Origin: a virus | Length of the DNA: 64,000 nt | Virus record (IMG/VR): IMGVR_UViG_3300035698_011044 | Coordinates: 1-64,000 of that record | Strand: one strand, 5' to 3' | Part shown: in pieces, positions 41,891-61,154 of the stretch | Numbering within the stretch: the stretch's first letter is position 1 | Layout: the number at the start of each line of letters is the position of its first letter | Notes under the pieces: generated by a model | Seen by the model: only the letters and a program-made list of their open reading frames with translations | What the model was told of the DNA's origin: nothing | Database searches by the model: none | Made by a program: the position numbers and the translations under genes

Positions 41891-42097
41891 TTAAGTTATA
41901 CGCTCCACAACATTTTTTGTAGAGTCTGGGGGCTGCTCCATGCGCCTAAGCTCTTTCCTTGCATCGGCAAGCCTTTTAGCCTGTCTCGACTCTGCCTTCT
42001 CCCATAACTCCAGACATCTATCACAGACCACGTTTAGCTTTTGGCCTGTAGTTATCTGCATTTGGAATTTTCCGCAGATTATGCAGTTGTATGTCAT
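41891..42097 (-). CDS. Small zinc-finger protein
   Basis: CIICG...CDRC; RBS supplied by the 109-bp repeat. Confidence 0.55.
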   Translation of the reverse strand: MTYNCIICGKFQMQITTGQKLNVVCDRCLELWEKAESRQAKRLADARKELRRMEQPPDSTKNVVERIT

Positions 42098-55768: not shown

Positions 55769-55987
55769 TTAACTTTTAATGTACGCCTTGTACCATCTTC
55801 TACAAACTGATTTAAAACTTCCCTCGCTTGCTGAGAGAGTCGAACCGCTCAATCTTCCACCCCTACATATCTGATTTCCGAGCGTTCCATCTTTACCGTT
55901 GAGGTTGACGTATACGTATGATGTTCCGTTTCCGCTGAAGAATGTAATTTTTTTGTTAAGTTTTCTGCTTTTAATTGTGTGTTCCAT
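55769..55987 (-). CDS. Small basic hypothetical protein downstream of the ribozyme
   Basis: 72 aa, AAGGAG RBS. Confidence 0.65.
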   Translation of the reverse strand: MEHTIKSRKLNKKITFFSGNGTSYVYVNLNGKDGTLGNQICRGGRLSGSTLSASEGSFKSVCRRWYKAYIKS

Positions 55988-56009
55988 TTCGTTAACTCCT
56001 TTATTGATT

Positions 56010-56073
56010 GTTCAGCCTATCTCATCAGTATCGGTAGGCTAACCCCGATAGACGCCCCGAAAGGCGTTTCGAC
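56010..56073 (-). ncRNA. Type II hammerhead ribozyme with pseudoknot
   Basis: Minus strand: GUC-GAAA-CGCCU(UUCG)GGGCG-UC^-UAUCGG(GGUUAGCCUA)CCGAUA-CUGAUGA-GAU-AGGCUGA; complete catalytic core and three stems. Confidence 0.92.
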
Positions 56074-56160
56074 TTCTACTCTACTGATCCCACCCTTCTG
56101 GGAGTTCCTCCATGTCAAAGAAAGTTACCTTAGTTACCTTAGTTAACTGCTACACTATTA

Positions 56161-56189
56161 AAGGTAACTCTTCTAGGTAACTTTGTCAA
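56161..56189 (-). promoter_or_regulatory. Sigma70-type promoter with repeated AGTTACCT boxes
   Basis: TTGACA-17 bp-TACCTT. Confidence 0.7.
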
Positions 56190-56197
56190 CACTTATT

Positions 56198-56833
56198 TTA
56201 TTTTATTTCGCTGAAGGCTGTATCATTGCATTCTTTTTTGTCTCCAGTAAAATTAAAATAGCGATCTTCGCAAATCTCGATAAATTTCTCATAAGCAATA
56301 ACATCTGCAAGTGCGTCATGAGCGCCTTCTCCTAGGTCAATCCCAAAGAACTCGCATACGCTGGTAAGCTTTAAGTTCTGGGTCGTTGGAATAATACCAT
56401 AGAAACGAAGGATTCTGGCAAGACCGTATCCGTCATAAACGTAGGGCTCAAAGAGAGAGCCGTAAAATTTGTCACCATGATGAAACCAAAACTTCCGTGC
56501 AAACTTAGCGTCAAAGTTTCCCTGGTATCCAGAGAAGACCATTTTGTCGGTTTTATCGTATGGATCCACATAGGTTTTTATTATTGCAGAAATCTCTTCA
56601 AAAGCTTGTTTGGAAGGCATAAATTCCGCAAGCTCTTCCTTTGTAACCTTCCCAACCTTGAGAGCATCTTCGGAAATGTGCTCCATGCTAAACGGACGCA
56701 TCTTGTAATTAAATTCATGAACATCTTTTCCCGGGCAGTGGATCCGTCCGGAAAATTGCCAGATGTTATGTATTGATGGATCTGTTCCGGTTGTTTCTGT
56801 GTCTGCGTTCATTATTTTTCTTGGACAATTCAT
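56198..56833 (-). CDS. DEDDh 3'-5' exonuclease (DnaQ-like)
   Basis: ADTETTG, GYQGNFD, AHDALAD motifs. Confidence 0.9.
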   Translation of the reverse strand: MNCPRKIMNADTETTGTDPSIHNIWQFSGRIHCPGKDVHEFNYKMRPFSMEHISEDALKVGKVTKEELAEFMPSKQAFEEISAIIKTYVDPYDKTDKMVFSGYQGNFDAKFARKFWFHHGDKFYGSLFEPYVYDGYGLARILRFYGIIPTTQNLKLTSVCEFFGIDLGEGAHDALADVIAYEKFIEICEDRYFNFTGDKKECNDTAFSEIK

Positions 56834-58825: not shown

Positions 58826-58854
58826 AAGATACCATTATACGCAAATAGTGTCAA
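58826..58854 (-). promoter_or_regulatory. Sigma70-type promoter upstream of erf
   Basis: TTGACA-17 bp-TATCTT. Confidence 0.65.
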
Positions 58855-61010: not shown

Positions 61011-61055
61011 CGCAACTCCTTTGGTTAAGTAATATTTAAAGTTACCTTACCATTA

Positions 61056-61084
61056 AAGTTACCATATTGAGGTATCCTTGTCAA
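61056..61084 (-). promoter_or_regulatory. Sigma70-type early promoter with GGTAACT boxes
   Basis: TTGACA-17 bp-TAACTT. Confidence 0.7.
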
Positions 61085-61154
61085 TACTTTTCTTTTGTGG
61101 AGCGTATTTATGGATCGATACTCTATAAGAATGTTTGAGGATTATGTGTGTGCA

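Follow-up and report, generated by a model that had tools for sequence, protein, structure and literature searches.

A type II hammerhead motif with a loop I/tail pseudoknot between the recombination genes and small genes of a phage genome

Positions 56073-56009, on the minus strand of the phage genome held as IMG/VR virus record IMGVR_UViG_3300035698_011044, almost certainly encode a real pseudoknot-stabilised type II hammerhead ribozyme of the phage kind. Four direct observations carry this assignment: the motif itself, its statistical significance, covariation across the wider family and the spacing to the next ribosome-binding site (RBS). We are fairly confident that the ribozyme is genuine and very probably active, and that its cut would give the mRNA of the small genes that follow a constant, hairpin-capped leader. 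The genome is 87,553 bp long, has direct terminal repeats and is rated complete; the window, by which we mean the whole stretch of DNA analysed, covers its first 64,000 nucleotides. The phage is present in 13 listed sequencing runs from 13 studies, all of DNA (one of them perhaps the source), and it recurs in salt-lake metagenomes.

Architecture and statistical support of the hammerhead

The elements of the ribozyme are as follows.
56009..56073, minus strand: the whole type II hammerhead, 5' strand of stem II through 3' tail (RF02276 and R1 matches)
56073-56071, minus strand: 5' strand of stem II, GUC, which pairs with GAU at 56021-56019 (sequence and R1 alignment)
56070-56068, minus strand: core GAA, G12 to A14 (sequence)
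56052..56067, minus strand: stem III, 6 bp including A15.1-U16.1 and one U.G pair (sequence, model alignments)
56050..56051, minus strand: predicted cleavage site between C17 (56051) and U1.1 (56050) (GUC triplet in model alignments)
56029..56050, minus strand: stem I, 6 bp, UAUCGG at 56050-56045 with CCGAUA at 56034-56029 (sequence, model alignments)
56022..56028, minus strand: core CUGAUGA, C3 to A9 (sequence)
56012..56018, minus strand: 3' tail AGGCUGA, forming a pseudoknot with UUAGCCU of loop I at 56042-56036 (complementarity, shuffles, relatives)

Along the RNA, the 5' strand of stem II is followed by GAAA, the stem III hairpin, the cut site, the stem I hairpin, CUGAUGA and the 3' strand of stem II. 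Loops close stems I and III and stem II is open, which is the type II permutation. A UUCG loop (56061-56058) caps stem III, loop I has 10 nt (56044-56035), and stem II has 3 bp, the outermost of which, G56073.U56019, is a wobble; the corresponding column pair in the relatives is G-C in 90, A-U in 10 and G-U in 1 of 101 among the matches listed. The conserved core is complete, with CUGAUGA, GAA and C17 (an H17 that is not G) aligned to invariant columns of both covariance models that we used, and none of the 101 phage hammerheads in alignment A1 (among the matches listed) varies in the CUGAUGA columns. The part of PMC3088659 that deals with hammerhead search methods gives the standard pairs next to the core as a rejection rule. 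All of these pairs are present here, namely G56021-C56071 (10.1-11.1), U56050-A56029 (1.1-2.1) and A56067-U56052 (A15.1-U16.1), and direct reading of the sequence reveals no core substitution and no mispair beside the core. An earlier sequence-only reading of this DNA had described an intact core, a 6-bp stem I, a UUCG-capped stem III and a 3-bp open stem II, and every one of these elements is present in the sequence; the cut that it predicted between 56051 and 56050 agrees with the position of the GUC triplet in the model alignments.

The pseudoknot between loop I and the tail comprises 7 bp, one of them G.U, and begins at the first nucleotide after stem II; in this class a pseudoknot is counted once loop I forms at least 4 bp with the nucleotides that directly follow stem II. 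A helix of at least 7 bp arose in 0.56% of 100,000 shuffles of the tail (P = 0.0056), in keeping with the UUAGCCU/AGGCUGA pairing that had been proposed from the sequence. Neither of the covariance models, RF02276 or R1, scores this helix, and the pseudoknot is independent evidence against a chance look-alike.

RF02276 (Hammerhead_II) matches 56011-56074 on the minus strand with 36.3 bits over model positions 1-66 of 66, with E-values of 6e-6 in a 351-nt stretch, 3.5e-7 in the 87,553-bp genome and 0.0011 for the whole window searched against 4227 families. The gathering score of this family, a score cut-off and not a structural feature, is 37 bits. Default Rfam annotation misses the hammerhead because its score falls 0.7 bit under this value, and a scan of the window at the gathering thresholds gave no match. 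The Infernal search with the Rfam type II model, proposed in the sequence-only reading, thus delivered a full-length match at E 3.5e-7 per genome but narrowly failed to reach the gathering score. In a control search, matches at E up to 1 were found in 6 of 14 control genomes and matches over the cut-off in 0 of 14. The second covariance model, R1, was built from the 101 IMG/VR phage hammerheads of alignment A1, drawn from the matches listed and with the window excluded; its match to 56073-56009 spans model positions 1-66 of 66 and scores 67.3 bits, with an E-value of 1.7e-16 that is rough, as are all R1 E-values, owing to a shortened calibration. This full-length score marks the hammerhead as a typical member of a large phage subclass, despite its narrowly missing the Rfam threshold. 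Sequence, RF02276, R1 and the pseudoknot shuffles together fully support the type II pseudoknotted hammerhead that had been proposed, and the result matches the class as the relevant part of PMC3088659 describes it.

Thermodynamic folding counts neither way. The nested minimum-free-energy fold of a 76-nt stretch is not the hammerhead and, at -20.2 kcal/mol (z -0.64), is no better than those of shuffles; the nested hammerhead helices alone amount to -14.0 kcal/mol, and plain folding picks the pseudoknot helix in place of stem I. Such a fold is expected, because folding programs omit the pseudoknot and the tertiary contacts.

No other ribozyme was found in the 87.5-kb genome by E-value scans of the window and the remaining 23.5 kb; a match to a microRNA family (E 0.097) in these scans was taken as chance. 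A second R1 match, at 41990-41973 on the minus strand, was also set down to chance (14.2 bits, E 0.12, 48 model positions deleted). The 18-nt string at 41973-41990 resembles a hammerhead without its middle, with a stem II strand, GA, the other stem II strand and the tail, and it falls within a 68-aa Cys-rich ORF (41891-42097). A search for tRNA genes found none.

Relatives, covariation and placement across phages

Neither megablast nor blastn of the region returned relatives from the phage collection, and a search with the exonuclease protein encoded upstream matched no viral locus. As no close phage relative was available, hammerheads of the same design were gathered from IMG/VR by means of two patterns: pattern 1, with the tail fixed, gave 29 stretches, and pattern 2, with the tail free, gave at least 120, the sample not being exhaustive. 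When 14 window proteins were compared with all gathered loci by tblastn, there were just distant ERF and DnaB matches and one other. A parser kept candidates in which stems I and III had at least 4 consecutive pairs and stem II 3 of 3 pairs, and it yielded 187 candidates (178 unique) on 136 locus-strands among the matches listed. The parser retained 23 of the 29 tail-fixed loci; by eye, three that it dropped (L005, L016 and L024) are hammerheads with a bulge or a mismatch, and three others (L025-L027) are chance matches.

Among the matches listed, loop I is at least 6 nt long in 107 copies, 84 of which pair at least 5 contiguous bp with their own tail. With re-dealt tails the mean was 23.4 and the maximum 34 of 107 in 200 trials, and the loop/tail helices of the relatives have many different sequences. 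Alignment A1, made with MAFFT, takes 101 of 164 candidates from the matches listed, with the window excluded, that are unique and have a stem III region of at most 26 nt, a tail of at least 12 nt and a loop I of at least 6 nt. In these 101 relatives (among the matches listed), 90.0% of the cells are paired, compared with 65.6% in shuffles, a level that is partly built in for stems I-III because the parser demanded those stems; sliding the partners by 1-3 columns brings pairing down to 31-39%. Changes on both sides occur in 20 of 21 pairs, and all six pseudoknot pairs covary (6/6, among the matches listed), the pseudoknot not having been a selection criterion apart from the length of loop I (at least 6 nt). 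The covariation is a property of the wider family: contigs of the phage itself in four further salt-lake DNA runs are identical wherever they cover the hammerhead stretch, so there is no covariation within the lineage.

The remaining copies point to a second common type II design. Loop I is shorter than 6 nt in 71 of the 178 unique copies (among the matches listed), in which, typically, a 3-nt loop closes stem I, the tail starts with C and A-rich sequence, and the loop/tail pseudoknot is missing; L033, L035, L055, L067 and L130 are examples.

Individual matches resemble the window's hammerhead more closely. L010 (232-296), and L029 with the same sequence, carry a closely similar hammerhead immediately behind a TAA stop codon; the viral contig is GC-rich and has no tblastn match to the 14 queried window proteins. 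Other contigs from three salt-lake runs (X2, X3 and X4) match just 56014-56080 or 56017-56053, with 6-7 differing letters and unlike flanks, one of which is a Shine-Dalgarno (SD)-like run after the tail; these matches indicate related hammerheads in other genomes of the same salt-lake habitat. The same tail subclass also occurs at 6 genome loci, in Aneurinibacillus, Heyndrickxia, Anoxynatronum and a Lachnospiraceae MAG (Bacillota) as well as in Desulfoluna. A host assignment from the tail subclass was set aside, as both Bacillota and Desulfoluna carry it.

The placement of these ribozymes relative to genes follows a pattern, which is a tendency of the class and not part of its definition. Of the 178 unique listed candidates, 170 could be evaluated for SD spacing and 172 for stop spacing, the rest lying too near the end of their locus. 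An SD-preceded start codon of an ORF of at least 40 aa lies within 120 nt of the tail start in 135 of 170 hammerheads (among the matches listed), and the distance from tail start to start codon in these 135 has a median of 26 nt and an interquartile range of 21-31 nt (among the matches listed); in the window it is 31 nt. An SD motif occurs within 30 nt in 127/170 (among the matches listed), compared with 23.5% of random 30-nt windows. On the upstream side, a same-strand ORF of at least 60 aa ends between -12 and +10 nt of the first stem II nucleotide in 125/172 copies (among the matches listed), an arrangement found at 5.7% of random positions. The downstream ORFs are short, with a median of 89.5 aa and 79 of 134 at or below 100 aa, and belong to 48 PHROG families, none of which recurs in more than 3 of 134 (both among the matches listed). 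Several copies occur on 26 of 136 locus-strands (among the matches listed), up to nine in the array of L067. Ribozyme and genes always share a strand, and among the matches listed the two strands of a locus never both carry copies. The hammerhead described here has the typical downstream spacing and is an exception upstream, where 124 nt separate it from the preceding stop codon.

We note that the stop codon often abuts or overlaps the 5' strand of stem II in the relatives, with the G of TAG serving as the first stem II base or TAA immediately preceding it. Part of the ribozyme would then lie under a terminating ribosome, and cleavage in these stop-abutting copies might be coupled to upstream translation.

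The locus and its promoter-like region

The features around the ribozyme are as follows.
56198..56833, minus strand: RNase T-like exonuclease gene (PHROG phrog_192, 3.8e-21; Pfam RNase_T, 4.7e-6)
56161..56189, minus strand: promoter-like site with TTGACA at 56189-56184, a 17-nt spacer and TACCTT at 56166-56161 (similarity to the 61084 stretch)
56121..56184, minus strand: four GTTACCT/AGGTAAC repeats, two direct and two inverted (repeat search)
55996..56001, minus strand: Shine-Dalgarno-like AAGGAG of the downstream gene (sequence)
55769..55987, minus strand: first downstream gene, 72 aa (ORF; no Pfam or PHROG family)

All neighbouring genes lie on the minus strand, as does the ribozyme, which occupies the sense strand of the early recombination and replication region. 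Upstream are genes for an ERF-type annealing protein, a 146-aa ORF and the RNase T-like exonuclease, whose stop codon ends the 124-nt gap; downstream is a run of small ORFs (the 55987-53625 cluster) and later a DnaB-type helicase. A gap of 10 nt separates the pseudoknot tail from the AAGGAG motif, whose end is 8 nt ahead of the ATG at 55987. The predicted cut is 63 nt from this ATG, close to the 60 nt or so given in the sequence-only reading. A single relative of the 72-aa gene was found, at locus L002 (53% identity), and no hammerhead precedes it, from which it follows that the downstream gene does not need one.

A TTGACA promoter at 56189, claimed from the sequence, receives a mixed verdict. 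The consensus promoter scan listed promoter-like sites on the minus strand at 58854, 56859 and 53609 and did not call the site at 56189, whose second hexamer TACCTT has 3/6 matches. What speaks for it is a second intergenic stretch at 61084, to which a 41-nt core at 56189 is identical at 30 of 41 positions. The two stretches (56105-56205 and 61011-61100, minus strand) lie 4.9 kb apart and have in common TTGACA, a 17-nt spacing, TA(A/C)CTT (TAACTT at 61084), TAAT and GGTAAC/GTTACC repeats. We regard a regulated promoter at 56189 as plausible but weakly indicated by this sequence similarity. The earlier estimate that the cut falls about 100 nt past TTGACA holds only when counted from a presumed start near 56154; from the first T of the hexamer the distance is 138 nt. 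As a separate observation, the 61084 and 56189 stretches look like the work of one regulator controlling two units; the former leads straight to the SD and ATG of a 60-aa ORF with no ribozyme between, and TATCTT occupies the equivalent position in the 58854 site.

The GTTACCT/AGGTAAC repeats may act as an operator at the DNA level, and in RNA they are predicted to be able to form a long hairpin. The fold of 56200-56100 has an energy of -27.7 kcal/mol (z -2.76), and 3 of 200 shuffles fold as well. This hairpin was considered and rejected as a terminator, as it lacks a following U-run and is absent from the terminator-like sites of the scan. The scan listed no terminator-like site between the exonuclease gene and the ribozyme, and read-through from 58854 and 56859 is therefore equally possible; RNA from upstream probably arrives at the ribozyme as well. 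With read-through, the ribozyme would cut the RNA of the recombination genes off that of the small genes and would do more than trim a leader.

The presumed leader also contains, at 56139-56151, an 11/13 copy of the segment from SD to ATG (55988-56000), with GCAG where the real site has GGAG. Both segments contain the palindrome GTTAAC and could pair together. Pairing between the leader and the ribosome-binding region was set aside, since on a rough count 400 nt should contain about one match of this kind by chance.

Predicted consequences of the cut and comparison with known hammerheads

The end chemistry of hammerhead cleavage, a 2',3'-cyclic phosphate and a 5'-OH, is established for the class. 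From the sequence we infer that the locus is transcribed, that the RNA cuts itself in the cell and that the cut bears on stability and translation, in the following manner. With about 65 nt transcribed, the RNA would fold into its three stems and the loop I/tail pseudoknot and would then cut itself after C56051. The upstream product would be either a leader of about 100 nt begun at 56189 or the read-through RNA of the erf-exonuclease genes, and its 3' end, which would carry a 2',3'-cyclic phosphate, would be formed by the stem III hairpin with its UUCG cap. In place of a triphosphate, a 5'-OH would head the downstream product, which is the mRNA of the cluster of small genes (from 55987). Its new 5' nucleotide would already be paired in stem I, leaving no unpaired 5' nucleotide, and the pseudoknot could still form within this product, followed by the 10-nt gap and the Shine-Dalgarno motif. 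The likely effect would be a fixed, hairpin-capped leader without a triphosphate, whatever the promoter or the upstream RNA, so that the stability and translation of the small-gene mRNA would be uncoupled from what lies upstream. The processed 5'-OH end for the 55987-53625 cluster and the removal of the repeat-containing leader, both put forward in the sequence-only reading, would follow only if the RNA is made and cuts itself.

Accessibility predictions agree weakly in direction with this constant-leader effect. In the cut product the SD and the AUG have predicted accessibilities of 0.75 and 0.63, from a model that ignores pseudoknots; in uncut RNAs, with pseudoknots likewise ignored, the predicted values are 0.14-0.67 for the SD and 0.10-0.55 for the AUG, varying with the upstream RNA included.

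RiboJ is an engineered insulator derived from a satellite-RNA hammerhead of a different permutation. The working principle would be common to both arrangements: a hammerhead between a promoter or leader and an RBS strips variable 5' RNA and leaves a constant leader that begins with a hairpin. By this analogy the ribozyme at 56073-56009 could act as an insulator in the manner of RiboJ. We suggest more tentatively, as a possibility that we would not call probable, that phage type II hammerheads, this one included, are natural ribozyme insulators held at a fixed distance ahead of the RBS. To the best of our knowledge, type II is the sole hammerhead permutation that leaves both products hairpin-capped (stem III at the 3' end; stem I with the pseudoknot at the 5' end). 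If the insulator reading is true, transcripts started at 56189 and those reading through from the recombination genes would be trimmed to one identical leader, and the output of the small genes would be set by the number of transcripts and not by their origin. A limited literature search found no report in print that names natural phage hammerheads insulators, which is not proof of absence.

Against a constant leader as the result of the cut, the ribozyme may be real and yet a passenger, a small module that recombines between phages with little or no effect on gene expression. This is unlikely in our view, even though a very similar hammerhead stands in the unrelated setting of L010 and L029, with no protein match among the 14 queried, the ribozyme-only salt-lake contigs differ from it by 6-7 letters and have unlike flanks, the downstream gene's relative at L002 does without one, and the genome holds a single copy. 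The tight spacing to the next RBS in 135 of 170 phage copies and the constant agreement with the strand of the genes, with no locus carrying both strands (each among the matches listed), would be unexpected of a neutral element, and ribozymes may also resemble one another because a 65-nt motif built on an invariant core has little sequence space to vary in. We consider it quite improbable, furthermore, that the DNA at 56073-56009 is a chance look-alike or a decayed, inactive copy, which we rank lowest of all the alternatives. The score under the Rfam gathering value, the control matches at E up to 1 in 6 of 14 genomes (though none over the cut-off) and the undistinguished minimum-free-energy fold would fit such an origin; it is opposed by the E-value of 3.5e-7 per genome over the full length of RF02276, the 67.3 bits with R1, the faultless core and core-adjacent pairs, the P value of 0.0056 for the pseudoknot, and a strand, intergenic position and SD spacing that are all typical.

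The cut might also act in the opposite direction. The 5'-OH end left by the glmS ribozyme can destabilise RNA in hosts with RNase J1, which makes the direction of any effect uncertain, and 5'-terminal stem-loops are the usual protection from 5'-end-dependent decay. If a 5'-end-dependent nuclease of the host attacked the new 5'-OH end in the glmS/RNase J1 manner, the ribozyme would lower expression and, once the early phase was over, shut off read-through into the small-gene cluster. A strong AAGGAG site and TTGACA hexamers fit a Bacillota-type host, and Bacillota, along with Desulfoluna, are where the 6 genome loci of the tail subclass lie. The new 5' nucleotide, however, is paired in a 6-bp stem backed by the pseudoknot, and placement directly ahead of an RBS in most relatives (among the matches listed) better fits a role that supports expression; we give this lowering effect little chance. 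Roles in circular-RNA formation or splicing were dropped from consideration, as these need two ribozymes and the genome has one. A constant, hairpin-capped leader remains our preferred outcome of the cut.

Pseudoknotted type II hammerheads beside small phage genes were described in 2011 (PMC3088659), which agrees with the sequence-only reading that they are known in phages. According to the parts of that study bearing on type II, the majority of members have a loop I/tail pseudoknot, fast cleavage at 0.5 mM Mg2+ depends on such pseudoknots, and clustered prophage hammerheads have been proposed to cut long transcripts into gene-length mRNAs (PMC3088659). The hammerhead at 56073-56009 has the core, the permutation, the short open stem II and the start of the pseudoknot in common with the class as RF02276 and these parts of PMC3088659 define it, along with the setting, a phage, the sense strand and a position beside small non-conserved genes. 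It departs from the RF02276 class in scoring 0.7 bit under the cut-off, in the G.U pair at the outer end of stem II (1/101 among the matches listed) and in being a single copy and not an array; in contrast to the 125/172 stop-abutting relatives (among the matches listed), it stands behind a promoter-like repeat region.

Two further systems invite comparison. In the haloviruses HF1/HF2, as the passages on them in PMC3088659 report, 13 nt separate a hammerhead from the start codon of the early gene behind it, and the 5' end of the major early transcript, when mapped, fell no more than 3 nt from the cut. This "HHphage" hammerhead is likewise a few nucleotides ahead of the start of an early gene in a virus of a salty habitat; it has a variant core, is discussed as salt-dependent and belongs to an archaeal host (PMC3088659), whereas the hammerhead at 56073-56009 has a canonical core and bacterial-looking signals (an SD site and sigma-70-like -35 hexamers). 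For Desulfovibrio vulgaris, the relevant part of PMC8782182 reports from cyPhyRNA-seq that three type II hammerheads cleave in vivo, with proof of cleavage in vitro as well, and they too lie near hypothetical and phage-like genes. Those are chromosomal or prophage elements of a cultured bacterium whose cleavage has been shown (PMC8782182); the cut in ours is predicted from the sequence.

The class, its pseudoknot and its habit of flanking phage genes have thus been in print since 2011, and a hammerhead is ordinary for a phage. The features that 56073-56009 has of its own (the outer G.U pair, the single copy and the promoter-like region upstream) are minor. To the annotation of this genome the hammerhead adds one RNA feature that default Rfam annotation misses, and it points to where the RNA is probably processed, between the recombination genes and small genes of no assigned function. 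What prokaryotic and phage hammerheads do is still described as open in the part of a review that addresses it (PMC6155905), and the locus by itself does not settle the role of the prokaryotic ones. A single ribozyme behind a candidate regulated promoter is a simple construct for asking whether such elements insulate, stabilise or destabilise an mRNA, and the survey gives the question of their role a concrete geometry, in which the stop codon abuts stem II and the SD and start codon come after the tail.
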